Assembly (NCBI GenBank): GCA_963769935.1
Contig: CAVYNY010000016.1
Coordinates: forward strand, 128,001-192,000
DNA length: 64,000 nucleotides
Direction: 5' to 3'
From: an uncultured delta proteobacterium
GTDB lineage: Bacteria; Desulfobacterota; Desulfobacteria; Desulfobacterales; JAFDCJ01
Shown here piece by piece: positions 3,254-55,606 of this stretch (its first letter is position 1; every line of letters begins with the position of its first letter). Made by a program: the position numbers and the translations under genes. Below the pieces are notes generated by a model. It was not told the origin of the DNA, did not search any database, and saw only the letters and a program-made list of their open reading frames with translations.

Positions 3254-4829
3254 TTAGATTCTGCGGTGTATCCAGTTCAGGTTATCGACCATCTTATCAA
3301 CCATCGACTTCTGAACGGCAGCCGGCGTCTTGGGAACTTCTTCTTCGGTCTCGGAAGCCCGCTTGGCGGCCAGGTCTTCACGTTCCTGGGCGCGTTTTTG
3401 CCGAATTGCATCAAGCTCGGCTTCAGCTTTAGCCTTGGCCTCGGTTGCCTGACGGGCCGCTGCTTCGGCTTTGGCCTTGGCTTCCGCTTCGGCTTTGGCT
3501 TTGGCTTGCGCTTCGGCTTTGACTTTAGCCTCGGCCTCCGCCTTCAGCTTGGCCTCGGCTTTGGCTGCCGCCTCCGCCTTGGCTTTGGCTTCTGCTTCGG
3601 CCTTGGCTTTTTCGTCAACGACGGCTTCGACCTTGGGCGCGGCTGCAGCCGGAGCTGCGGTCGCAGGCTCCGGGGCGGGAGCCGCTTTTTTCGCGGGCTG
3701 GGCCGGAGCTGCGGCAGGTGCCGCTTCCTTGGCGGGTGCCGCCGCAGCCGCCTTGGGTGCCGGAGCCGGCTTTTTTTCTTTTTCTACAGCGATGGTCAGA
3801 TCCGGTTCAGGCGAAAGCGACAGAAAATCAATTTCCACATCGGCCAGCTGCTTTTTAATCGCCGCCACATCGGTAGCCACTCCGCCTTCATAAACCAGGT
3901 CGATGTAAGCCTTGACCAGTCGAATAGACTCGGGATGGCGCATGATTAGAATGTCGGAGCCACCCATGAGGTATGCCACCGCACCTACCGCTTCCATGAG
4001 GATAGCGCGCTTTTCCGGGTCCCCCAGCAGCGGCGCTTCTCGATGCCGACTGCTTGGCTTCTTTGCATTTCCAGACCTCGTTGCCGAGATTGTTGATCAG
4101 CGGAAGCTGCAGCTTTTCGTCACCCTGGCCCAGCGCTGCCATCCGGATTCGTTCCATGACGGAATACGAATATTCCAATCCGTAACCCAGACCGCCGGTG
4201 GTCGGATCGATGATCATGCGATCGGTGGGCATTCCCAGGTTTTCAAGCAGAATGTTGCATTGTTTGGCAAGGTTAACGTCGATCGGCGAAGATGCAATGA
4301 CGGCGTGGCCGAAACCCATGGCGGCCGCCCCGATGCCCTTGTGGTTCTTGTCCTCCACCGGGCCGAGGATCAGGTTTTCTCCCTGACATTCTTCGGCTAT
4401 TTTTTTGAGGACTTCTTCATCCTTTTCGACATTGGCGGAGCCCCAAATGATCAGGGGTACACTCACAGCTCCCAGGACTTTTTTGACGGTTGCAACCGCC
4501 TCACTCGCCGGAGCATCGTTGCCGTTGGGGTCGATACTTTTGAGCTGCAGAACAATCATATCGGCACCGAACTCCTCCACGCACTTTTTAGCCCAGGCGG
4601 CAGGATCTGAAACGACGTCTTTGAAAGGACTGAGCGCTGCCTCCGGCCATTCATCGGGTTTCATATCCCAGATTTCCATGGCTATTTTGGGTTTATTGGG
4701 CATTGCTCCTTCAAACTGATAAAACGGATAGCATGCCTCGCCCCCGACAGTAACGGCTTTATCGCCCTTTCCCAGAGTGATTTCCTTTATACGGCCGGTA
4801 TAGGATTCTTTAAAAAATTCGAAAGCCAA
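3254..4829 (-). CDS. acsD: Corrinoid Fe-S protein small subunit with a long Ala/Lys/Glu-rich C-terminal tail; frameshift near 4040
   Basis: TTG start at 4829 after AGGAGG. Motifs SSPIDVNLAKQ and DPTTGGLGYGLEYSYSVMERIR. Continues in the 3254..3997 frame (EAPLLGDPEKRAILMEAVGA...ILIMRHPES). Confidence 0.9.
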
Positions 4830-5074
4830 TGTTACCTCCTTATAGCTTGGTGTATTTCGGTTAATGAATGCAGTGTCCGCAATCGGAACATTGCAATGAG
4901 TTAACCACCAGAGGGACTCCACCGCCGGCAGGCGCCCCTGAATTTACAACCCCCCTTTCATATTTTTATTTTATTGATCAATCTACAATCGGTAGATTTA
5001 TTCCTGGTTGAAGCGAAGCCTGCTCTACAGACCTAAAAGGCCTGTCTATCCCCATAATATGCAGAATCTTTTCA

Positions 5075-5146
5075 TTTATATGCAGCGGGTAGCTTTGTCA
5101 AGAGTTGAACCCCTATGAATCTAAATTTCTAATTAAATCAGATTCA
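5075..5146 (-). promoter_or_regulatory. Putative sigma70 promoter for acsD-cooS-acsB with an upstream dyad
   Basis: Minus-strand TTGACA (5101-5096) followed by an AT-rich -10 region. Inverted repeat TGAATCT-N17-AGATTCA at 5116-5146. Confidence 0.4.
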
Positions 5147-5285
5147 CCCACGGGAGAGGTCTACGAATAATTGAAGATTGAATATTGCAGATTGAATATT
5201 TATGGTATTTTATCGTTTTTGACTTCTTTTAGATTAAGGCAGATTGAACAAAATTAAAAAGACGGAACACCTTCAATATTCAATC

Positions 5286-7240
5286 TTAAATCTTCAATTT
5301 CCTCCGGGTTTCCAGGCGGGATTTTAATTTGGGGAACTGGTTGATGTCCGTATGGGGTAAAAAGAGGGCGGCCACATAATTATCCATATATGAATTGGTA
5401 TCGGACAATTCAAAATTGGTCATTTTTTTAGTAACTTCCACAACATCTTTGCGGATGCGGTTGGTCAGCGAACTCATCCGGGCCCCCATGAATGATCCGT
5501 TGCCGATATATGTAACTTTATCCGGCGTCCATCTCCGGCAGCAGACCGATGGTCATGGCTTTTTCAAGATCCATATAGCTGCCGAATCCGCCGGCCAGAA
5601 TGATGTGTTCGATTTCGCCGATGCTCATCCCCACTTCGGTTAACAGGGTCATGCAGCCACTGTAAATGGCGCCTTTGGCCCGGATGAGATTCTCGATATC
5701 GATTTCCGTCAGGGTAATATCGCGGTCGATCTGGGTTTCATCCTTCCAGGCCAGCACGTACTCATAGACGCCGTTGTCTTCCCGAATGCGAGGAGTGTCC
5801 AAGTCGCGGTCGAATTTTCCCAGGTTGTTGATAATCCCCATTTCGAACATGATCGCCACCATGGTGATCAGGCCGGATCCGCAAATGCCTTTGGGCCGGA
5901 CATTGCCGATGGTGATAATCATGGGCTCCAGGGTCACCGGATCAATGGAAAAATCCTCGATCGCCCCTTTGGCGGCCCGCATGCCGAACTTGATGCCCGC
6001 CGCCTTCAAAAGCCGGACCGGCAGAACAGGCGGCACAGGCCAGCCAGTCTTTGTTGCCGATCACGATTTCGGCATTGGTGCCGATATCCAGGTAGAGGGT
6101 CAGCGTCTTCGGACCGATACATCCCCGATCCCATGACACCGGCCACAATATCGCCGCCCACATAGCTGGAAACCGCCGGATAAACCAGAGCGGTCACATG
6201 GTCGCCCAGATCCATGCCCAGATCTGCGGCTTTGATGGGCGGATACAGGGTGGCCGCCGGCACATAGGGCGCGCGCCGGATAGACCGCGGATCGACTTTC
6301 AGCATCAGCTGGGTCATGGTGGTGTTGCCGGCCAACGTGATGGTGGAAATATCCTCCGGATCAACCCCGGATCTTCTGAATGATTTTTCCCAAAACCTTG
6401 TTGATGGTTTCGATGACCACCCGTTGATTTTTGCCAGACCGCCGGGTTTTTCCGCATAGACAATCCGGGAGATCACATCCTCGCCATAGCTGATCTGCCC
6501 GTTGAATTCCCCATGCTCGGCCAGCACCTCGCCGCTGATAAGATCGATGACCTGCCCGTAAACCGTGGTGGTGCCGATATCCATGGCAATGGCATAACTT
6601 TGGGCGGTGGTATCTCCGGGCTGAACATTGATGATGCGGGTTTTGCCGACATCCCGCACCGGCCGGGCCAGGGTAGCCGTGACCTTGAAATCATCCTCCC
6701 GCATCACATCCGGTATTTTACGAATCACCGGAAAGATCAACCTCCAGACGGTGCTCATCATGTTTGAGGTTGAGATAGCTGACCAGCCGGGTGACATCCG
6801 GCAGATTGTCCTGGACCGTGGGTACGGGCAGTTCCAGATATTTTTTTTCAACCGGGGCCACAAACAGCCCCTTTTCCTTGAGCTCATCAAAATTCATCGG
6901 ACCGGATATGAGCGGTGCGCCGCGGTGAGGCCTGCAGATTCAGCACGCTGGCATCAATCGACGATTCGACCGGAATTCGCACGACCAGGTCGCTTTTAAC
7001 AGCCGCCTGACAGGCCAGCCGGTAGCCCGCGGCCAGATCTTCTGCACTCAACTTTTCTGAAATGCCGCCGTCCACGGTGCCCGCTTCAATCAGAACCCGG
7101 CATTTGCCGCAAACCCCTTCCCCGCCGCAGGAGGCATTCACATGAACGCCCGCCTCCAGCGCTGCCCGAATCAAGGTATCGCCGTCGTCGACTTCGATTT
7201 GCATATCATAGGGCAGGAATTTTACTGTGTGTTTGCTCAC
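5286..7240 (-). CDS. acsV: Reductive activator of the corrinoid Fe-S protein (RACo/AcsV; 2Fe-2S plus ASKHA ATPase), split by several frameshifts
   Basis: Consecutive ORF fragments carry CGGEGVCGKC...RLACQ, DIGTTT, YGEDVISRI, SYVGGDIVAG, DIGTNAE, ACSAGPAFEG, GICGSG, AGGFG and FLPHTD. Confidence 0.88.
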
Positions 7241-7292
7241 TTTAAATTTCCTTTAACCAATCAACCCAATTAACTCAATTAACTCAATAAAC

Positions 7293-9170
7293 TCAAACCG
7301 GTTCATCAAACTTGCATTTTAAAATCAGTATATCGCCGTCAAAAAAGGTGTTCACTTTGTAAGGCAATTGTTTGAAAAGTTTGACCATGCCCCGATTTTG
7401 CGGTGAAGTGTAGGCAACCAGGCCGGAAATATCATTTTGCTTGGCCGCTGTTGCCAGCTTTTTCAGCAGGATCCCGCCGAGTCCTTTTTTTTGATAGTCT
7501 TTGCTGATGGAAAAAGCGATTTCCGCTATATTGGTTGCCGGATCGATCAAATATTCGCCGATGCCAACCACGCGGCCGAAACCGAATTCGCCGACCAGGA
7601 CCACGATGGTTAAATCTTTGATATAGTCAATCTGAGAAACCCCCTCGGCCTCTTCTTTGACAAAAGTGGTTTTTTCGTGGAAAAACCTGGCAATGACATC
7701 GTCCTTTTCCAGATTGTAGAAGTGTTCCTGAATTCTTCTCTCATCCAGCGGTTTAGCCGGCCGGACCGTCATCTGTTCCCCGTTGATTTCGATGGTTTCT
7801 TCAAGCTGGATGGGATAGACGCCATGAATGGATTCGTGCAGCGTTCGTTCAGTGCTCATAAGCCCCATTTTTTTGGCTTCAAAAAACAGCTCATCCCTGA
7901 AATCCGGATGCGCGATGCCGATAAGAGCCATGGCCCGTTCCTGAAGGCTTTTACCGAATAAGTTGACCGACCCGAATTCGGTCACCACCAGGTGAACATC
8001 GCCCCGGGCGGCTGCAACCGCCGTGTCGTCAAGCATGGGTACGATACGACTCTTGGTACCCTGCATGGCTGTGGCAGGCAGCATTAAAATGGACTTGCCG
8101 CCCGGCGACTGGACCGCGCCTCGCATAAAATCTGAAATCCCGGTAATCCCGGAAAAATGGGTTTGCGGCATGGCATCGGCCGCTACCTGTCCGGTCAGGT
8201 CAATGGTCATGGCCACACTCATTGCAACCATCTTATTATGCCGGGCAATGATGGCCGGATCACAGACATAATCAGACGGATGAAATTCAACGGCCGGATT
8301 GTCATTTAAAAATTCATAGAGGGCCTCCGAACCGATGGCGCTCTGGGCAACCATCTTGCCGTCGTTAAAGCCTTTTTTGCGGTTGGTGATCACCCCTTTG
8401 GAAAACAGGTGCATAATGTCATCGGTCATATACATGGTGTGGATGCCAAGATCATTTTTATCCGACAACGCCAGCATAACGGACTCCGAGGTGGTTCCCA
8501 AACCGATGGCAATCGTTGACCCGTCGTCAATCAGTCGTCTGGCAATCAGCCGGCCGATATCATTGGCGGCGGCCAGCTCGGGATTTTCACCGATGGTCAA
8601 CAGCGGCTCATCGTATTCCACAAAATAATCGACTTCGTTGACGTGAATAAAACTGCGCCCCAGTACGCGGGGCATATTGGAATTGACCTGGGCGATTACC
8701 AGGTCGGCGGATTGGGCCGCCGCCATGGTGATATCAACCGAAACCCCCAGGCTCATCCAGCCGAAATCATCCGGCGGTGAAACCTGGATCAGGGCAACAT
8801 GAATCGGCAGCAGGCGGCTTTTAAACAGCCGCGGAATAGCCGACATGTTGATGGGAGTGATAAAGCGCTGGTTGCGGGCGATCGCTTTAGATTTGGCGGA
8901 GCCCAGGTAAAAAGATCGGATATTGAGGCTGTGGTCTTTGGTTTTGTTCGCTATCAGCGTAAGCGGTGTGGTCTCAAGGGTCATCAACCGGTTGATTTCG
9001 ATATCTTTGAGATAGTTCGACATTTCGGACAGCTCTCGAACCAGATGCTGGGGTTCACCGCAGGAAGATCCGATAAATACGCGCTGTCCCGGCTTGATAA
9101 GGTTCAGTGCATCCCGGGCGCTGCGTCTGTTCTCAACGTAATTATCGGCCCAATAAGTTGATGTGGCCAT
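7293..9170 (-). CDS. Acetyl-CoA hydrolase/CoA-transferase family protein fused to a C-terminal GNAT domain
   Basis: QVSPPDDFGWMSLGVS, DLTGQV, DFMRGA, VVTEFG, IAHPDFR. GNAT motif YQKKGLG near the C-terminus. Confidence 0.88.
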   Translation of the reverse strand: MATSTYWADNYVENRRSARDALNLIKPGQRVFIGSSCGEPQHLVRELSEMSNYLKDIEINRLMTLETTPLTLIANKTKDHSLNIRSFYLGSAKSKAIARNQRFITPINMSAIPRLFKSRLLPIHVALIQVSPPDDFGWMSLGVSVDITMAAAQSADLVIAQVNSNMPRVLGRSFIHVNEVDYFVEYDEPLLTIGENPELAAANDIGRLIARRLIDDGSTIAIGLGTTSESVMLALSDKNDLGIHTMYMTDDIMHLFSKGVITNRKKGFNDGKMVAQSAIGSEALYEFLNDNPAVEFHPSDYVCDPAIIARHNKMVAMSVAMTIDLTGQVAADAMPQTHFSGITGISDFMRGAVQSPGGKSILMLPATAMQGTKSRIVPMLDDTAVAAARGDVHLVVTEFGSVNLFGKSLQERAMALIGIAHPDFRDELFFEAKKMGLMSTERTLHESIHGVYPIQLEETIEINGEQMTVRPAKPLDERRIQEHFYNLEKDDVIARFFHEKTTFVKEEAEGVSQIDYIKDLTIVVLVGEFGFGRVVGIGEYLIDPATNIAEIAFSISKDYQKKGLGGILLKKLATAAKQNDISGLVAYTSPQNRGMVKLFKQLPYKVNTFFDGDILILKCKFDEPV

Positions 9171-23080: not shown

Positions 23081-24449
23081 TCAGCGTCGGTAAGTTCTTT
23101 GTCTGGCCAGGGCCGCTTTGGTCAAAGTGTCGACATGGATATCTACGTAATCGAAAACCCTAGCCGTTTTTTTACCGGGTGCCGGACGCAGAACCCGTCC
23201 AAGATACTGTAAGACACGACCGCTGAATCGGATGGGGGTGGCGAAAAAAAGGGTAGACAAATTTTGACAGTCAAAGCCCTCACCGATAAGCTGGCCGGTG
23301 GCAATGACAACCTGCACCTTTTTCTGATTTAAGCCCTCGATTACCTTCTGACGCTGATCCATATTCAGGTCACCGGTCAAAATTTCGGAATCGATTTTAA
23401 ATCGAAACTTCAACAGGGCCCGCAGGTTTTCACAATGCGCCTTGCGATCGGACAAAACCAGGCAGATCCCGTCAATGTTCGCGGTTTCCCGGGCAACATC
23501 GGCAGCGATGAGAATATTCCTTTGGGTATCGGCCGTGAGCTCCGATAACATCTTGCTGTATTCGGTCACCGGGTCATAATGGGGCCTGAAGTCGGTTTCC
23601 CGCGTGATAACTTCCGCGGGCAGGACATCTCCGGTTGCAAGCAAATGTTTTTTGTCGACTTCATGGTGTACGTCACCAAGGTGCCAGAAGATCAATTTGG
23701 ACAGTTTGTCCCTGCGCCAGGGTGTCGCAGACAGTCCCAGCATATATTTGGAATCAAAACCGGTCACAGCTTCTGTAAAGGTGCGGCTCGGACACCGGTG
23801 GCATTCGTCTACCACCAGAAACCCGAAATGCCCGGCAACCTCCTCGACACATTTGTAAAGAGATTGCACCAGGGCGATGGACATTTGTTCGCCCAGCTGC
23901 TTTTTGCCGCCGCCGATTATTCCGACCTTTTGAGCCTCGAATTCCGAGAAATTTTTCGATGCGCTGCGCCCATTGGACGGCCAGGTCTTTGGTATGAACA
24001 ACTATTAAGGTCGGCTGCCGGCGTTGGGCGATCATGTACAGCGCCATAATTGTTTTGCCGGATCCGGTAGCCGAACTCAAGGTGCCGAAATCTTTGCCCA
24101 GCATGCGGTCCACCGCGACCTGCTGAAACGGCCTCAGTTTTCCATTAAACAAAAAGTCGACGGGAGCCAGACGCCGGCGGTGATCGTTAATTTTGTATTT
24201 TAGGTCATTTTTACGACACAGCAAAATCAGCTGCCGCATATAGCCCCGCGGAATCCACAACCCCGTATGTCCCACCTTATCGTAGAAACGCAGCACCTGG
24301 GGCGTACCCCGGTTCCAGCGCCCCATCCTCTCATTCTCAACCCATTTGGGGTTTAATATTTCCAGCTTTTCGGTGAGAATGGCCAGAAGGTCCGGCGGGA
24401 CATTTTCCAAATGCAGGTTATTGGTGATTGTAATCGTAAAAGGTGCCAT
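23081..24449 (-). CDS. Superfamily 2 DEAD/DEAH-box (ResIII-like) helicase; frameshift near 23940
   Basis: LRPFQ and ATGSGKT in the upstream frame; DECH, GLSATP, EGFD and QYLGRVLR in the downstream frame. Confidence 0.88.
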
Positions 24450-24681
24450 AGGCTCTAAATTGAATATTGGAAATTGAAGATTGTATGTATTCAATCGTTT
24501 TTATATATCAGATGACGGAGCTCAACAACTTTACCAACTTGATCCTTGTACGGTTATCCTATCACTCCGCAATCCGTAACTCGCACCCCGCACCCCATTA
24601 ACCCGCACCCCGCAACTCGCGACCCGCAGCGTGCCTTTCTTTACTATGAACTATCAACTATCAGCCATGAGCTATGAGCTA

Positions 24682-29525: not shown

Positions 29526-30515
29526 ATGCGAAATAGCATTGTGGTCATCGCCGAACATACAGACGGTCTGGTGCGGCCCGTGACATATGAACTCATTGCC
29601 TTTGCCTGCAAACTGCAACAGCTGACGCAGCAGGCGATACGGGTTTTGATACTTGGTGCCGACGTACTGAATCTCGCCCGGGATATCGCGAATCAAAGCA
29701 GTCTGGATGTGACGGCCTTTGAAGTCCCCGATCTGCCCGGATATAATGGAGAATTATACAGCCGGCTATTGGCGGAACAGCTTCGCGTCCATGGCCCGGC
29801 CTATGTGTGTGTTGCCCACTCATCCCGGGGACAGGATTTTGCACCGGTCCTGGCGGTCAAATTGGGTGCCGCCTGTATCAGCGCAGTTGAAGATATTCAG
29901 CCGTCCGGCGAAGGCGTCGGTTTTGTGCGACCGCTTTACGGCGGCAAATTAAGGGCCGGCATCCGTCCGGTTTCCGCGACAGCCGTTGTGGCCGTCCAGC
30001 CCGGAATTTTCAAATTCGTGCCGCCGGCAGGTGCGAAAGCCGGCCGCGTCGACATCCGGCCGCTATCGGCTGTGCCGCCAAGCTCGCGTTCTCTGGGAAT
30101 GAAAAAGTCTGCGCCGGATGCGGCGGGTATCACGGAAGCCGACGTCATTGTCGCCGCCGGACAGGGCATCGGCGAAAGGGATAATCTTGACCTTATCCAT
30201 CAACTGGCCGCGCTGTTTGCCAGATCAGCCGTCGCCGGATCCCGCATCGTGTGTGACCTGGGTTGGCTGGAGTACCGGTGTCAGATTGGCGCAACCGGCG
30301 CAACCGTTGCCCCGCGGCTGTACATTGCCTGCGGCATTTCCGGGGCTATCCAGCACCTAACCGGCATGCGCGGCTCGGAGTTTATTGTGGCCATTAATAA
30401 AGACCCGGCCGCCGCCATATTTCAGGTGGCGGACATCTGTATTGTTGAAGATCTGACGACGTTCATCCCAAAAATAATTGCATCCTGCCTGGAATCGAGG
30501 GAGAAACATCAGTGA
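29526..30515 (+). CDS. etfA: Electron transfer flavoprotein alpha subunit
   Basis: [41 protein letters not shown]. Confidence 0.95.
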
Positions 30516-30561
30516 AGAATCCTGGCCCAGAGGGCCAGGCTTTCAATGTTGGAATATAATA

Positions 30562-32421
30562 TTACAATTTTTTATCTACTAATTTTTGAAATACGTATGG
30601 CAGGCAGTCTTCCGTTTTCATGGGTTTGCCGGCCAAAAGAGAATGCGTATCTATCCATTCTCTTTTATTCGCAGCAATATAGGTTTCCAAATCATGGGCC
30701 TCCATAAAATTTTTGGTTCTTTGAGATACATTTTTTATGGCTGTTTCATGAATAGCGGGGTAATGGTTCATAAGTGCCGCCGCTCCGGCAATATAATGCG
30801 ACCATTTTCTATTCTCTATTGATACCCTTTCGATGCCGTCAGATTTTATCATGGTATCGTAGTCGTCATTTTTAAAAAAATATAAATAGACATCCAAGTA
30901 AAATTTGACCATTTCCAATACACTGGATCCAAAAAATGAATTAAAAGCGTCATCGTCTATGTAAGCATCAGCCAGATACACCATATCCTTGTCCAGATAG
31001 TTAGTATTGTACATTTCTTTATAATCACAGATCTCCTTTACATTGGAGGCATTTCTACTAAAGCCGACACAATTTAAAACAATATCGGCATCTATGTGAT
31101 GTTTATCATCTATGATAATTCCATTTTCATACATAGCGGTTATATTTCCGACGATGGTACTTATTTTTTTTAAATAGTGCCCGATGAACCATATGTCGGA
31201 GACGCTGATTGTGTGGCCGTCGTGTTTAATTTTACCCATCCAGCACTCGGGTTGGGCGGCGCCACTCAGGTCATACAATTTCTTCCAAAGCAGCATGTTT
31301 CTCATGTTGCTTTTTTTATCATGCTGAAAAGATTCATCGTATGGGGTTGCAAAATTCAAGTAATCAATAATCTTGGGGCACACGGTGCCATGTCTTCTAC
31401 AGACGATGGTGACATGGCTGGCGCCGCTTTCCAGGGCGGTCCTGGCATTCTCGACGGCAAAGGCACCCATCCCGATAATTACCACCTTTTTATTTTTCCA
31501 GGGAAAATCTCTAACGTCGTCTGATATACCTGAAATTATTTGTCCTCGATAATCACGTTGATTTACCAGATCAATTTTCCGGGGTGTTCCGACACGATCA
31601 TTTATCGCTAAAATGACGCCGTTGCTTTTCAGGGTCAGTTTTTGTCGGTTCATGGTCAAATTTATTAGATATGAATTGCCGGTTTTTTTTATCCAATCGA
31701 CTTCAGTATTTAGGAAAATATTATCGGAGACGTTGCGGGCCAATGAAACGATATCTTCCAAAATTTCTCTGGTTGTAGAATGGTCTCGGTTGGATCTGGA
31801 CCCTTTTTCAATCATCCGATAACCGGCTTCCGAGGTATTCACTTGGGAGGTGCTGTTGGCATACTGCGACCAGATTCCGCCGACACTATCTCTTTTTTCC
31901 ACCAGACAAAAAGAAATATTGTTTTTTAATAGGCGCTTGGCGGCATATAAGCCGGTCACGCCGGCGCCGACGATAATAACATCGACTGTTTTGGGCAAAA
32001 TTTTTGTGCTGGAAACTTTTAGTCGGCTGTTGTCAAAAACAAACTTTTTTTGGGCATACGCAATTATCGTGCTTTCGAAATTATCCGAATCGGAGGGATC
32101 AAGTTTTATAAGATCGCAGTCGAACTCAGTCAGATCCAAGCCGGCTGGATGAATATCCGATCCATCAAGCAGGAACAGGGCATATGGGAAACATGCCGAT
32201 CGGATGGATTTTAATTCAAGCAGCAATTCATTTACCCATTTCATTTGACGGGTTGAAAATATGAATCCATAAGGCAAATCGGCATGTCTTCTGAGTTCAT
32301 TTACAATCAGCGGAATTTCTTGCGAACCAAAGTTTAAAATTGGACTCAGAGAAAGTTCTACCCGACTGAAATTGGCCAATCTCATCTTAAGGGCCCTGTT
32401 TGTATTTTCCGGTAAGATCAT
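30562..32421 (-). CDS. Class B flavoprotein monooxygenase-like (FMO/BVMO fold) FAD/NAD(P)H oxidoreductase with an about 140 aa N-terminal extension
   Basis: IIVGAGVTG...EKRDSVGGIW (FAD), VVIIGMGAFA...VCRR (NAD(P)H), CVGF. No FxGxxxH fingerprint. RBS GAGGA. Confidence 0.75.
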   Translation of the reverse strand: MILPENTNRALKMRLANFSRVELSLSPILNFGSQEIPLIVNELRRHADLPYGFIFSTRQMKWVNELLLELKSIRSACFPYALFLLDGSDIHPAGLDLTEFDCDLIKLDPSDSDNFESTIIAYAQKKFVFDNSRLKVSSTKILPKTVDVIIVGAGVTGLYAAKRLLKNNISFCLVEKRDSVGGIWSQYANSTSQVNTSEAGYRMIEKGSRSNRDHSTTREILEDIVSLARNVSDNIFLNTEVDWIKKTGNSYLINLTMNRQKLTLKSNGVILAINDRVGTPRKIDLVNQRDYRGQIISGISDDVRDFPWKNKKVVIIGMGAFAVENARTALESGASHVTIVCRRHGTVCPKIIDYLNFATPYDESFQHDKKSNMRNMLLWKKLYDLSGAAQPECWMGKIKHDGHTISVSDIWFIGHYLKKISTIVGNITAMYENGIIIDDKHHIDADIVLNCVGFSRNASNVKEICDYKEMYNTNYLDKDMVYLADAYIDDDAFNSFFGSSVLEMVKFYLDVYLYFFKNDDYDTMIKSDGIERVSIENRKWSHYIAGAAALMNHYPAIHETAIKNVSQRTKNFMEAHDLETYIAANKREWIDTHSLLAGKPMKTEDCLPYVFQKLVDKKL

Positions 32422-32625: not shown

Positions 32626-33765
32626 CTAAAATTCTGCATTTGCCAGCCTTGCGCCTTCAACCAATGATTTTAACTTTAACCAGGCAATCTCGCCCGATAC
32701 ACCGGCGGCAGAGGCCGTTGAGGCAAACCCGCAATCGGTTGAGCCGATAACTCTTGCGGGTCCAAGCAATCTTGCAAAATTTAGAATTCGCTGTGCGACC
32801 AGTTCCGGATGTTCAATGGTATTGGAGGTCGTGTCGATGACACCCGGCATCAGAATTTTATTTTCAGGGACAGAAAAATTTTTTATAACTTCCCATTCAT
32901 GCGCATGGCGATGGTTGCTGGATTCGATCGAAATATAGTTTGCATGAACCCGCATGATGCTGTTGAAGATTTTACTTAAATCAATATCGCAGTGATGGGT
33001 GCCGGGATAATTTCCCCAGCAAATGTGAGCTCGGCATTTTCCGCCGTCAATATTTTCCAGCGCCTGATTCAATATATCTAGATTGGTTTCGATCAAGGTT
33101 AAAAAGTATTCTTCCCGCAAGTCCTTAAACCTTGTATGTCTTCCCATTGCCAGATCAGGGCAGTCGATTTGCAGAAAAATTCCGTAACTACTTATTGTTT
33201 CATATTCCTGTTGCAATACCTCTCCTAATTTCTGAAGATACGTTTCGTAGCTTGCATAGTATTTATTCTCCAGAAACAGGGCCACTGTTCCCGGTGAAGG
33301 CGCGGTAAAAAACAACTCGGCGTCGGATTCCGGATACTTTTGTTTCAACTCATAAAAGACCCCGACCATCATATCCAGCTCTTTTCGCAATGATTCCCCG
33401 CCGGTATAGGCAAGCTCCTGCGAGCATGCCGGAAGCCTGATCGGTGCTTTGGGATTAAGTGTAATTAATCCGTTTCTGCCGCTAAACCTCCGGGCATATT
33501 CCGGCAGTTCTTCCAGATCTTTCGGAAAAGGGGCCGTGCCTGTGTCAAAAAACCCTGATATTCTATCGACAGTCGCGCTAATGTAATCGGATCTCGGCAA
33601 TTCACCATTGTTAATGAAAGATAATCCCAACCTAATTTGCTTTTCCAGAATGGTCCTCAAATGACGTCGCAAATCATCATCACTTATTTTTTTCTGCTTT
33701 AAAATCTGGAGGTGCATTTCATTGGGACGCGGCAAAGATCCGACGTGGGTGGTTTTAATTTTCAT
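32626..33765 (-). CDS. Cobalamin-independent methionine synthase II family, core/half-size (related to MesA-D, YxjH and epoxyalkane:CoM transferase)
   Basis: TTHVGSLPRP, NNGE, QIDCP; candidate Zn ligands HIC (H,C), E (SIES) and DCGF; PGVID...EHPELVAQRI. At 379 aa it is only the catalytic half of MetE. Confidence 0.9.
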   Translation of the reverse strand: MKIKTTHVGSLPRPNEMHLQILKQKKISDDDLRRHLRTILEKQIRLGLSFINNGELPRSDYISATVDRISGFFDTGTAPFPKDLEELPEYARRFSGRNGLITLNPKAPIRLPACSQELAYTGGESLRKELDMMVGVFYELKQKYPESDAELFFTAPSPGTVALFLENKYYASYETYLQKLGEVLQQEYETISSYGIFLQIDCPDLAMGRHTRFKDLREEYFLTLIETNLDILNQALENIDGGKCRAHICWGNYPGTHHCDIDLSKIFNSIMRVHANYISIESSNHRHAHEWEVIKNFSVPENKILMPGVIDTTSNTIEHPELVAQRILNFARLLGPARVIGSTDCGFASTASAAGVSGEIAWLKLKSLVEGARLANAEF

Positions 33766-33800: not shown

Positions 33801-36554
33801 TTATAACAAAGAGTGAATCTCATCTATCAATTGGTCCGGCAGTGGATGTTCAAAAAGCAAATCGGAATCGATTTCGATTGCCAGCGAAGATTGGAGTTGA
33901 GTTATAAATTCGGTGGCACTCATTGAATCCAATCCCTGCTCAATCAGTTCAACATCCGGATCTATAATTTCAATGCTTGTAACTTTAAAAAACAGCCCTT
34001 GGATCAGCTGCTGGACTTGTTCCCGGGATAGTTTGCCTTTTCCATTATTACCCTTCTGAATTTCCGATCCAACATTTTCGAATACCTTCATATTATTTGG
34101 ACCGGCATCTAATTCAACACCGTTGCGGTCAAAATTTATAGCATCAAGCTGATAGTAATTCTCCAGCGATGAGGATCGCCCTCTATCAAATGGAACCGTT
34201 ATATTTTCAATTTCTTTTCTGACCCGCTTTTCCACTCCTTTGATGATGATATGGGCATTTGTTCCTCCAAACCCAAAACTGCTGATGCCGATGTGAGACT
34301 GACCATTTATGCTTGTCGCTTCAGAAACTACCCTTAGATTGAAAGATTCGAAATCAACATATTGATTGGGTCGGTTGAAATGCAGATTCGGCGGAATCGT
34401 GCCATGATACAGGATCAGTACTGATTTTATTAACCCGGCTATACCGGCTGCAGACTCCAGGTGCCCGATATTTGATTTTACCGACCCCAGATAACAATTA
34501 TTTTTGCGGCTCTTGGCAATTGTCCGTTGAATAGCTGAAATTTCAATCGGATCGCCGATCTTAGTGCCGGTCCCATGACATTCGATATAGGATATATCCT
34601 GCGGTTTGATGGCTGCATCCCGACAGGCATCTAAAATTAATTCCTCCTGGGCTTCCGGATGGGGCGCCGTGATAATCTGTGAACGCCCTCCATTTTGATT
34701 AATGGCTGAGCCCAATAGTTCGGCATAATAATTTTTTACCCGCTTTTTATTCGCCAACAGAACCAAGCCGCCGCCTTCGGCCCGAACGTAGCCATCGGCC
34801 GAATTATCAAAAACCTTGCAGCGATTATCTTTCGACAAAAATCCCGAATTTTTCATTTTATCGGTAAAATCATTTCCCAGGATCATATTCACCCCGCCCG
34901 CAATTGCATAGTCGACCCGGCCGGCCTCAATATCTTTGGCAGCATAATGGAGCGCAACCAATGAAGAGGAACAGGCGGTGTTGGAAACCCAACTCGGCCC
35001 CCTCAAATCATAATGGTAGCTTATGCGGGATGCTATTATGCTGGGGTTGGTTCCGGACGGATAATAAACTGAATTTCTGTCACCCCTGTATTCTTGATTC
35101 CATACGCCGATATATACGCCGATTCTTTTTTTATCCAACTTAGCGGGATCAAGGCCGGCGTCTTTAAAAAGTAGTTCCGTTAATTCAAGCGCCAATATCT
35201 GTTGAGGATCCATTGTTTGGGCTTCGGCTTCCGAGATATTAAAATATTTATGGTCAAACCTGGTTATTTCATCATTCAAAAAACCGGCTTCGAAATTACT
35301 CCGGCCGGCATTGGCCTTTACTTGATCTTCTCCCCTCAACAACATATCCCAAAATTGAGTCAAATTTTCGATCGATGATGGAAATCGACAACTCATTCCG
35401 GATATAACCACTTCATTTTTTAGGGATTTTAAATTCAAGGCCTGGTCAGATGGTTGGGTTGATCCAAAATTGTTAATCAATTGATTAATTGTCTTATATC
35501 TATAAAAGTCCTGCGGCGCTAAATTGGGAAAATAGGTTTGCAAAAATTCGGACAACTCAGCAAAAGTCAGCGATGTAAACCCCTGATACGCCAAAGAAGT
35601 TTTAAAATCCACGCCGGGGCGAAATTCTTCTATTGAACGTTTTAGTTTGTTCAAAAACGGATCTTGATCGAGCAGTTTCCGCTGATGCAATATCCACTCT
35701 ATTTCATCCTCTCCTCTAAACATCGATGATACATATTTATAGCTATCAAAAATATCACAACATTTATCCAACACCGGATGAAAACCAATCTCGATTATTT
35801 CCAGTTCATCATCATTAAACCTGGTTTTGATGGTTTGCATGGAACTGATAAAATCGACCGGACTGACCAACCATCGTTGCCAGTGATCGGCATTTAACTG
35901 GTTTTCAAAATTGGCCGTGAGGCCTGATACAAACCTGAAATCTTCTATTTTGCGGGATCGGACAGGGGGCAGTTTATCACTGAAACCATGGTAATCCGGG
36001 TGGTGCCACGGATGGGGCAGTCTCATGGTTACAAAACCAGGGTTTTTCTCTACGAATTCAGTCATTTCATTGGTGTATCCGCTCAAGGTTACATGGTTGT
36101 GAATACCCCTTTTGAAATTCAGGGAAGACAGGTTTACCGATAATTCTTCTATCTGTTGATTCGACAACTCACCATGCAGCATCACGCCTTCCAAATTGGA
36201 GGCTATTTCACCGATCCGAAAGGTTACGTCGAGAATATCTTCCAGGGAATAAAGCCCCGCTTGATATGAAGCCGATAATTCTCCGATACTGTGTCCGATA
36301 ACCACATCCGGATTATATCCCCACTGGGTCCAAATATCGGACAGACAGATTTGCGATACGACCGTCAACAGCGGACTGTAGGGACACCGATGTTTACCGA
36401 TCTCATTTTCCCAGATTTCTTCTAAATTTAAACCAAATTTTGAATCTAATATGGATCGTATTTCAGACCAGCATTGCGAATGTTCCAATAGTTTGAAGCT
36501 GCTATCGCTGTTGCTGGTGCCTTCCCCTGAATATAAATATATAATTTTTTTCAT
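33801..36554 (-). CDS. Minimal type I polyketide synthase-like protein, domain order AT-ACP-KS-ACP
   Basis: ATG at 36554 after GAGGT. AT: GHSIGE..R, EIGFHPVL. ACP1: QGFTSL. KS: MDPQQ, TACSSSL, ECHGTGT, KSNIGHLESAAG, SSFGFGGTNAH. ACP2: QGLDSM. Confidence 0.9.
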   Translation of the reverse strand: MKKIIYLYSGEGTSNSDSSFKLLEHSQCWSEIRSILDSKFGLNLEEIWENEIGKHRCPYSPLLTVVSQICLSDIWTQWGYNPDVVIGHSIGELSASYQAGLYSLEDILDVTFRIGEIASNLEGVMLHGELSNQQIEELSVNLSSLNFKRGIHNHVTLSGYTNEMTEFVEKNPGFVTMRLPHPWHHPDYHGFSDKLPPVRSRKIEDFRFVSGLTANFENQLNADHWQRWLVSPVDFISSMQTIKTRFNDDELEIIEIGFHPVLDKCCDIFDSYKYVSSMFRGEDEIEWILHQRKLLDQDPFLNKLKRSIEEFRPGVDFKTSLAYQGFTSLTFAELSEFLQTYFPNLAPQDFYRYKTINQLINNFGSTQPSDQALNLKSLKNEVVISGMSCRFPSSIENLTQFWDMLLRGEDQVKANAGRSNFEAGFLNDEITRFDHKYFNISEAEAQTMDPQQILALELTELLFKDAGLDPAKLDKKRIGVYIGVWNQEYRGDRNSVYYPSGTNPSIIASRISYHYDLRGPSWVSNTACSSSLVALHYAAKDIEAGRVDYAIAGGVNMILGNDFTDKMKNSGFLSKDNRCKVFDNSADGYVRAEGGGLVLLANKKRVKNYYAELLGSAINQNGGRSQIITAPHPEAQEELILDACRDAAIKPQDISYIECHGTGTKIGDPIEISAIQRTIAKSRKNNCYLGSVKSNIGHLESAAGIAGLIKSVLILYHGTIPPNLHFNRPNQYVDFESFNLRVVSEATSINGQSHIGISSFGFGGTNAHIIIKGVEKRVRKEIENITVPFDRGRSSSLENYYQLDAINFDRNGVELDAGPNNMKVFENVGSEIQKGNNGKGKLSREQVQQLIQGLFFKVTSIEIIDPDVELIEQGLDSMSATEFITQLQSSLAIEIDSDLLFEHPLPDQLIDEIHSLL

Positions 36555-36635
36555 ATTGGTGACCTCGGCATATTGCTGGCTTACGCTGTTTAATTTAATC
36601 CCCAACTTGGAGAAATTTACCGTTCAAAAATTTGC

Positions 36636-36663
36636 AAAAAAAAACCTCCCGACAGGGGGAGGT
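36636..36663 (-). terminator. Intrinsic terminator, the expression platform of the SAM riboswitch
   Basis: Minus strand ACCTCCC-cctgtc-GGGAGGT followed by a T-run. The 5' arm ACCTC is complementary to GAGGT at the 3' end of aptamer P1, giving an antiterminator. Confidence 0.85.
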
Positions 36664-36685: not shown

Positions 36686-36783
36686 ACCTCATGTTCCCCT
36701 TACGGGACTGGATTTAGCACCTTTATGGAATAGGTTGCTGAGCGGTCAACGGGCCAGTTCCCTCACGCTACTCTTCATGACTC
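36686..36783 (-). ncRNA. SAM-I (S-box) riboswitch aptamer
   Basis: Minus strand reads UCAUG-AAGAG-UAGCGU-GAGGGAACUGGCCC-GUUGA-CCGCU-CAGCAACC-uauuccaua-AAGGUGCUAAAUCCAG-ucccguaaggggaa-CAUGA. It has the S-box core motifs (AGAG, GAGGGA.CUGGCCC, GCAACC, GGUGC.AA.UCC), P1 pairing and the CUGG/CCAG pseudoknot. Confidence 0.92.
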
Positions 36784-36797
36784 TTTAATTTCTAATT

Positions 36798-36825
36798 ATG
36801 ATAGGGATGATACATTTAAAGTCAA
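36798..36825 (-). promoter_or_regulatory. Putative sigma70 promoter of the SAM-regulated operon
   Basis: TTGACT-N16-TATCAT, ending about 15 nt before the aptamer. Confidence 0.55.
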
Positions 36826-37038
36826 GCTTCATCGGAATTTTTTTTTAGACCCCAGCCCGGAAAAGCCGAAGCCAAGATGGACAAATTAATCACGAAAGCG
36901 CGAAAGGACGAAAACACGAAAAGAATAAAAGACTATTTTCGTGCTTTTCTAGATTTCGTATTTTCGTGATAAAAAATTTTTCATAAAATGCAAAGAAATA
37001 ACTATCAAGATTCCAAAGTAGAACTTCCCAGCCATTGC

Positions 37039-55292: not shown

Positions 55293-55501
55293 TCCGCCCT
55301 GAAAAATAAAGTCCTGGCGGTTGTGCATTGTTCTATGTAAATTGAAGAAAGTTGGTAGATCGAAGGTTCAGCGGATTAATTAGCTTTTTGTTCTTGACAA
55401 CACAACCTCGATCTCTTAACTTTTTATATTATTAGTTACTACGCTTTCAAAGAATCATATTCAAACCTGAACACACACTATTTTTCAGGGCGGATTAATT
55501 A
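55286..55501. repeat. Perfect 23-bp inverted repeat bracketing the thi promoter region
   Basis: TAATTAATCCGCCCTGAAAAATA (55286-55308) and TATTTTTCAGGGCGGATTAATTA (55479-55501). TTGACA-N17-TAACTT at 55394-55422 lies between them. Confidence 0.8.
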
Positions 55502-55502
55502 A

Positions 55503-55576
55503 TATTAGGGGTGGCTTCCGAAGCCTGAGATTACACCCTTTGAACCTGATCTGGATAATGCCAGCGTAGGGAAACG
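55503..55576 (+). ncRNA. TPP (THI-box) riboswitch
   Basis: GGGGTG...GCCTGAGA..ACACCCTTTGAACCTGATCTGGATAATGCCAGCGTAGGGAA, upstream of thiM. Confidence 0.95.
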
Positions 55577-55606
55577 AGTGGAAGAACAATTGCGAGATGC
55601 AAACCC

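Follow-up and report, generated by a model that had tools for sequence, protein, structure and literature searches.

A predicted SAM-I riboswitch-controlled operon of a mini-polyketide synthase, a core methionine synthase and a flavin monooxygenase-fold protein in an uncultured delta proteobacterium: a candidate methionine synthase

The genome of an uncultured delta proteobacterium of the Desulfobacterales (assembly GCA_963769935.1) encodes a small polyketide synthase (PKS) on contig CAVYNY010000016.1. The 64,000 nucleotides analyzed here, positions 128,001 to 192,000 of that contig, are called the window, and coordinates refer to it unless otherwise stated. The PKS heads a three-gene operon with a methionine synthase lacking the folate domain (core MetE) and a flavoprotein, preceded by a predicted S-adenosylmethionine (SAM) riboswitch. 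The PKS consists of an acyltransferase (AT), a ketosynthase (KS) and two acyl carrier proteins (ACPs). In the order of transcription, the locus comprises the following features.

36798..36825, minus strand: sigma-70-like promoter site, TTGACT-16-TATCAT (consensus match 10/12), the best-scoring site, just 5' of the aptamer
36686..36783, minus strand: SAM-I (S-box) aptamer, Rfam RF00162, 59.8 bits, E 2.5e-11, gathering score 44.4
36635..36663, minus strand: terminator-like hairpin and U-tract, the 5' arm of which can alternatively pair with the aptamer 3' end (antiterminator)
33801..36554, minus strand: mini-PKS gene P0001, AT-ACP1-KS-ACP2, 917 amino acids, from the open reading frame (ORF) and Pfam
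35670..36554, minus strand: AT of apparent starter-loading type, S89 and H184 retained, canonical Arg replaced by I114, HAFH by HPWH
35457..35657, minus strand: ACP1, Ser328 invariant in 20/20 orthologues (Pfam and alignment)
34212..35417, minus strand: elongating-type KS, C528/H660/H698 invariant in 20/20 orthologues (Pfam and alignment)
33804..34028, minus strand: ACP2, Ser877 (Pfam), doubled in 11/20 orthologues
32626..33765, minus strand: core methionine synthase P0002, 379 amino acids, PF01717 (Meth_synt_2) only
30562..32421, minus strand: class-B flavin monooxygenase-fold protein P0003, 619 amino acids, with an N-terminal flavodoxin-like domain at about 10-135

The first-pass annotation of the window described P0001 as a stand-alone AT-ACP-KS-ACP protein with rewired AT motifs. 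Its layout is confirmed by Pfam, which finds an AT, the N-terminal, C-terminal and extension regions of a KS, and two PP-binding stretches, ACP1 alone at 21.2 bits (cut-off 20.8) and ACP2 at 43.6 bits. As had also been stated, Pfam detects no ketoreductase (KR), dehydratase (DH) or thioesterase (TE) in P0001, and the operon itself lacks a phosphopantetheinyl transferase (PPTase). The KS triad (C528/H660/H698) is indeed intact, the carrier serines lie in GFTSL (S328) and GLDSM (S877), and the AT keeps GHSxG (S89) together with the altered motifs GEG (10-12), SPL (60-62) and HPWH (181-184). The start is placed at the ATG at 36554, where the alignment of the orthologues begins; a TTG further 5' would lengthen the protein by 17 residues. 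The protein is not stand-alone, however, given its two operon partners.

The reported retention of the downstream AT arginine was mistaken. In 179 of 183 AT sites from 149 modular PKSs retrieved by a representative search, the canonical Arg follows the catalytic Ser by 25 residues, and the corresponding residue here is Ile114. All 20 bacterial orthologues have Ile or Leu at this position, only 2 of the 50 family rows that matched the motif (of 72 examined) have Arg, and the malonyl/methylmalonyl extender signature of Arg plus HAFH/YASH is absent. R113, one residue ahead of the canonical site, is kept in 8/20 bacterial orthologues. The AT Arg stabilizes malonyl-type substrates through their carboxylate, and loading didomains of AT-ACP type accept other acyl-CoAs, according to the accessible text of PMC5655351. 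Because the Arg is lost, the AT is best read from its sequence as a starter loader using a non-carboxylated acyl-CoA, and the Trp of HPWH may narrow its pocket. An earlier guess at a sulfur- or amino-containing starter finds no support, as the missing Arg indicates only that the acyl-CoA is non-carboxylated. The GEG glutamate (E11), a possible binder of a cationic starter, is Val in many of the fused eukaryotic homologues described below, and a plain acetyl starter would explain more.

P0002 has the attributes of a core methionine synthase: Meth_synt_2 as its only domain, fewer than 400 residues, the Zn ligands H247/C249/E281/C345 and the homocysteine-binding residues S10/E55/D201. The latter align to S22, E73 and D188 of the MesD structure 3RPD, and the roles of both sets of residues in core MetE are described in the accessible part of Price et al. 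(2021; PMC7857596). The seven residues are unchanged in 20/20 bacterial and 50-51 of 51 fused sequences. P0002 is the only Meth_synt_2 match of the host.

The predicted structure of P0003 (pLDDT 83.7) folds like class-B monooxygenases, which include Baeyer-Villiger monooxygenases (BVMOs) and FMO. Foldseek places PAMO and steroid monooxygenase at the top, and VIA matches include DiatB (Z 25.0) and the PKS-embedded LbmA Ox (Z 23.4, rmsd 3.7, 400 residues aligned). The dinucleotide-binding motifs GAGVTG (152) and GMGAFA (317) are those of a class B flavin monooxygenase. For the N-terminal domain (10-135), only generic flavodoxin, receiver and hydrolase folds were matched (best Z 9.9), and these assign no function. 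A predicted complex of MetE and the flavoprotein scored 0.01. The nearest paralogues of P0003 (P0175-P0180), one of them from Aureococcus, are embedded in other PKS or NRPS proteins with A, KS, KR, TE or sulfotransferase domains and form an uncharacterized clade of PKS-associated oxygenase domains.

S-box leaders control genes of methionine and SAM supply. The SAM-I aptamer, overlooked in the first pass, is the only RF00162 match in the genome; with a score above gathering and a terminator/antiterminator platform, it is a predicted SAM-I riboswitch with predicted SAM binding. When leader transcripts cut before the terminator 3' arm are folded, the aptamer 3' end pairs with the terminator 5' arm, an alternative pairing that fits the expected off-switch. 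Promoter-like sites, identified by consensus match only, number 13 against 16.7 expected by chance. A scan of 27 of the 32 related loci found SAM-I 5' of the PKS in 12, namely 11/11 co-linear operons having upstream DNA and 1/11 loci with metE inverted, and in 0/5 loci whose upstream DNA is cut off. Loci in which metE diverges from the flavoprotein gene and no SAM-I was found are L007, L010, L011, L014, L015, L022, L023, L027, L028 and L030; in three inverted-metE loci, no other RNA family was detected at E up to 0.5. Close relatives are present as contigs in four sediment metatranscriptomes from one study, in which the flanks are covered as well, so that expression is not shown. In one of the four runs, short contigs confined to the aptamer reach a depth of 56-88 compared to 17.5 at the PKS start, a weak hint.

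The three genes travel together. The flavoprotein gene occurs in 32 related genome loci, 29 of which have the complete trio, the other three being cut by contig ends. By record title, their hosts are mostly Desulfobacterales, Desulfocapsaceae, Desulfobulbaceae and 'delta proteobacteria', with single records of Myxococcota, Spirochaetota and Chloroflexota. A PPTase gene lies 3' of the trio in 9/32 loci (four checked against Pfam), and no other conserved neighbor emerged from 50 of 101 listed neighbors and about 17 others. In L016, L018 and L019 (~4000-7900), a TRAP transporter (DctPQM) and a PEP-mutase/isocitrate-lyase-family gene lie between metE and the flavoprotein gene. The cassette is patchy, occurring in 8 of 23 genomes of the genus (the host included); no close MetE was found in 400 sampled genomes of the phylum, and cassette GC is 42% compared to 51% for the genome. 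Distant core-MetE relatives (35-41% identity) have no PKS neighbor and an FMO-like neighbor in 2/81 loci. Those at L061-L135 (36-41% identity) mostly lie in a conserved marine cluster with SnoaL-like (46 loci) and cupin (41) genes and an ABC-transporter-like set.

In algae and protists, the same parts occur as one protein. The bacterial three-gene profiles match 41 of 59 long homologues in operon order on a single polypeptide, with named sources that include Hondaea, Polarella, Symbiodinium, Cladocopium, Effrenium, Amoebophrya and Chrysophaeum; the Emiliania form is without the PKS part. Judged from sequence, these homologues are the 'MetE-fusion' of Rao et al. (2024; PMC10861871): the set includes species named there, with the Phaeocystis antarctica sequence outside the compared set. 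According to the accessible sections of that paper, MetE-fusion is induced in axenic P. antarctica without B12 and trades off with MetH, the axenic alga grows without added B12, and Phaeocystis likewise splits off the AT/PKS part. The same sections settle neither the methyl donor nor what the extra domains do, suggest methylated nutrients as donors and guess at Zn trafficking for the 'CzcO' flavoprotein; in the accessible passages of two later papers, the work is merely cited. They report prokaryotic matches as carrying the MetE domain alone, with the fusion arising in eukaryotes, and place one Desulfobacteraceae protein near labyrinthulid sequences (PMC10861871). The unfused, riboswitch-controlled bacterial variant is a new form of this known family. 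MetE, flavoprotein and KS trees each unite bacterial and fused forms against outgroups, with a KS support of 100 against 25 modular KSs, and each of the three quick trees groups the bacterial sequences as a single clade. This clade is nested within the fused forms with unstarred support of 92 (flavoprotein) and 82 (KS). An AU test does not reject a monophyletic group of fused forms (p 0.50), and the operon is accordingly not called ancestral.

The fused gene also occurs, without introns, on four AT-rich metagenome contigs (22-33% GC).

L057:4424-14241, region with the fused gene
L058:2096-11901, region with the fused gene
L059:10001-17288, region with the fused gene
L060:1-4194, region with the fused gene

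Their GC, their gene content and one neighboring gene, which shares 60-78% identity with genes of three giant-virus MAG contigs, indicate that these contigs are probably giant viruses. RING, ubiquitin-hydrolase and cathepsin genes lie near the fused gene, which had no match in the viral contig collection searched. A stand-alone AT and a PPTase follow directly 3' of the fused gene on all four contigs (one of the four ATs and two of the four PPTases pass the Pfam cut-off), SAH hydrolase is present on three, and metK lies directly 5' on two. The cluster appears to close a SAM cycle around the fused gene. Both trans ATs inspected carry GQG, Arg at Ser+25 and GGFH, a malonyl signature, and the cis AT has lost the Arg; by these motifs, the neighbors show malonyl supplied in trans. 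No paper joining giant viruses, polyketide synthases and methionine synthases was found in a search that fell short of most subscription papers.

Taken together, the trio very probably has a methionine-synthase role. The earlier proposal of a carrier-tethered primary-metabolism module serving two partner enzymes is upheld, and the evidence narrows that role to methionine synthesis. With less assurance, the methyl donor is probably made on the ACP. That the mini-PKS, core MetE and flavin monooxygenase constitute one folate- and B12-independent methionine synthase, the PKS and monooxygenase making the donor on the carrier, is a tentative proposal. More tentative still is its specific form, in which the acetyl-CoA methyl would become the O-methyl of an ACP-bound ester by Baeyer-Villiger oxidation and pass to homocysteine with recycling of malonyl-ACP, a possible third route to the methionine methyl; malonyl-ACP methyl ester as the exact donor is held to the same degree.

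In this cycle, a PPTase would prime both ACPs, the Arg-less AT would load acetyl from acetyl-CoA onto ACP1, and FabD would charge ACP2 with malonyl in trans. The KS would then condense acetyl and malonyl to acetoacetyl-ACP2 and CO2. A starter AT, an elongating KS, malonyl in trans and no reductive domain imply a beta-ketoacyl-ACP, which with acetyl is acetoacetyl-ACP. The monooxygenase, with FAD, NADPH and O2, would insert oxygen in the manner of OocK, yielding malonyl-ACP2 methyl ester. In chemical terms, the methyl of such an ester can pass to a Zn-thiolate with the carboxylate as leaving group; at MetE, the Zn-thiolate of homocysteine would thus take the O-methyl, giving methionine and regenerating malonyl-ACP2. 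Because nothing is offloaded, no TE, KR or DH would be needed. The net reaction would be acetyl-CoA + O2 + NADPH + homocysteine giving methionine + CO2 + CoA. The riboswitch would turn the operon on when SAM falls, for instance when the B12-dependent route fails, and it could plausibly serve as a backup in oxic periods that put B12 enzymes out of action. OocK is known to turn beta-ketoacyl thioesters into malonyl esters (PMC6174933, accessible part). No paper joining a SAM riboswitch, a polyketide synthase and a methionine synthase, or on the ester mechanism, was found in the same partial search.

Several points weigh against this reading, the need for O2 in sulfate reducers being the main difficulty. 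The host carries dsrA, which makes its O2 supply doubtful, and 18 of 32 cassette-bearing genomes are without an A-type oxidase match. The host itself has two cytochrome bd genes and two heme-copper oxidase subunits that score as A-type, and A-type-scoring oxidases occur in 14/32 cassette genomes compared to 15/201 genomes of the order, in unmatched groups whose kin are not independent. SAM-I precedes the PKS in only one of 11 loci with inverted metE and upstream DNA, the other ten giving no match. We know of no MetE-type enzyme that takes a carboxylate methyl ester, and in Baeyer-Villiger oxidations methyl migrates less readily than any other group. Type I BVMOs share a catalytic Asp/Arg pair and the fingerprint FxGxxxHxxxW; the P0003 stretch at 291, YRGQIISGISDD, lacks its His, and Asn195 aligns to PAMO Asp66. 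By motif, P0003 is not a classical type I BVMO, and its fold matches, just 12-20% identical, do not fix the reaction. In the accessible literature, OocK accepted only 2 of 11 test substrates, these two being medium or long chains (PMC6174933), and the ester formed by LbmC-Ox, from a related module, has the opposite, glycolyl, orientation (PMC7586987). The fabD match of the host is in two pieces. A ResIII/DEAD helicase gene at 23081-24494 (minus strand) is likewise read as two overlapping ORFs; these splits, and those in several related loci, are probably assembly frameshifts.

The alternative that survives best keeps the methionine-synthase role and changes the chemistry: an ACP-bound alkyl donor, but with a non-acetyl starter (for example a methylthio-, sulfonium- or betaine-type acyl-CoA) or an oxygenase that hydroxylates or gives the reverse ester. 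It is rather unlikely, although linkage, fusion and riboswitch fit it equally well and the unusual AT pocket (GEG, SPL, HPWH) would suit it. The methyls of DMSP and betaine derive from SAM, and onium donors require neither a KS nor an oxygenase; nor is there a ligase or transporter among the conserved neighbors, and the Val at E11 in many fused forms tells against a cationic starter. PKS oxygenases do vary in outcome (PMC6174933, PMC7586987, accessible parts), and methylated nutrients have been put forward as donors, yet axenic growth of P. antarctica without added B12 (PMC10861871, accessible part) calls for net methyl synthesis.

It is improbable that methyl-folate or a methyl-corrinoid protein serves the core MetE as donor, with the PKS and oxygenase in a side role such as cofactor making, Zn supply or repair. 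The host has corrinoid and MetH-type genes (four homocysteine-methyltransferase-domain genes, one beside a corrinoid-type gene), a B12-binding protein is encoded 3' of the trio in L021, and the flavodoxin-like N-domain of the oxygenase shares its fold with B12-binding domains, a match (Z up to 9.9) that is not specific. Against this, the MetE has no folate domain, and catalytic KS, AT and ACP residues are conserved alongside it in different domains of life. In anaerobes, corrinoid proteins are presumed to serve MesA-C (PMC7857596), but the algal form is induced when B12 is absent (PMC10861871), both as given in the accessible parts.

Slightly more improbable again is that the genes form a small secondary-metabolite cluster whose MetE-like protein uses an oxidized polyketide to S-alkylate a thiol. 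The type I PKS architecture, the patchy spread in the genus and phylum and the deviant GC of the cassette are what such a cluster would show; SAM-I control, intact homocysteine-binding residues, metK and SAH hydrolase neighbors, and the lack of a release domain and of conserved transporter or tailoring genes speak otherwise. Finally, although the best whole-protein matches of P0001 are giant modular PKSs at 35-43% identity, through summed KS repeats (the representative search, with one family member in its top 150, was used for controls alone), the idea of a truncated modular-PKS relic is refuted to the point of negligible likelihood by full-length orthologues at 56-76% identity, invariant catalytic residues and the separate KS clade shared with the fused forms, in line with the first-pass view of a whole protein.

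The host has one Sfp-sized PPTase, which a Pfa-like (PUFA-synthase-type) PKS cluster at G000:C3:23129-41400 could share. Elsewhere in the window, an ordinary TPP riboswitch (55497-55589, plus strand) lies 5' of thiM (55707), thiE (56642) and a ThiL-like AIRS-family gene (57328). At the cassette ends, the intergenic stretches ~30511-30560 and ~36880-36980 have many loose-ended contigs in RNA runs, which suggests that they are multi-copy repeats.

The identity of the methyl donor in MetE-fusion bears on how B12 limits haptophytes and dinoflagellates in the ocean. In bacteria, this 2000-residue protein is divided into three intron-free genes that can be separately expressed and removed in E. coli, and the riboswitch and the metK, SAH-hydrolase, FabD and PPTase neighbors offer evidence that does not depend on expression data and point to the missing components. 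Were the ester mechanism true, it would be new enzymology, in which a PKS would take part in the primary metabolism of amino acids and a carboxylate ester would donate the methyl, and the route would be common to sediment sulfate reducers, bloom-forming algae and giant viruses carrying a whole SAM cycle.

Among known systems, MetE-fusion is the closest: its AT, PKS, PP-binding, core MetE and 'CzcO' flavoprotein parts are homologous and in the same order in the bacterial operon, and its flavoprotein is about 42-50% identical to P0003. In bacteria, however, the parts are three ORFs under a SAM-I riboswitch instead of a single fused polypeptide, the riboswitch being the proxy here for the induction of the algal form when B12 is short. 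MesD/MesX also pairs a core MetE with a partner and is O2-dependent and folate-independent, with a methyl predicted to come from central metabolism, but as described in the accessible part of Price et al. (2021; PMC7857596), its partner is DUF1852 (MesX) and it is confined to aerobes, whereas the bacterial trio has a PKS and a monooxygenase. P0002 is also distant from MesD (3RPD match E 2.6e-5), with neither an adjacent MesX nor high MesD identity. OocK/PedG and LbmC-Ox are, like the proposed P0003, FAD monooxygenases acting on beta-ketoacyl thioesters beside a KS-ACP module without reduction, but they serve natural-product assembly lines, and OocK is likened to P0003 by description, not by sequence (PMC6174933, PMC7586987, accessible parts). 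LbmA Ox (8ODW), the structural neighbor of P0003 at 15-16% identity, is a proposed oxime former. Type B loading modules share with P0001 an AT-ACP followed by a KS, and an AT without the carboxylate-binding Arg; compared to such a module with its extension module, P0001 has no extender AT, reductive domain or TE, and its terminal ACP is predicted to be recycled (PMC5655351, accessible part).

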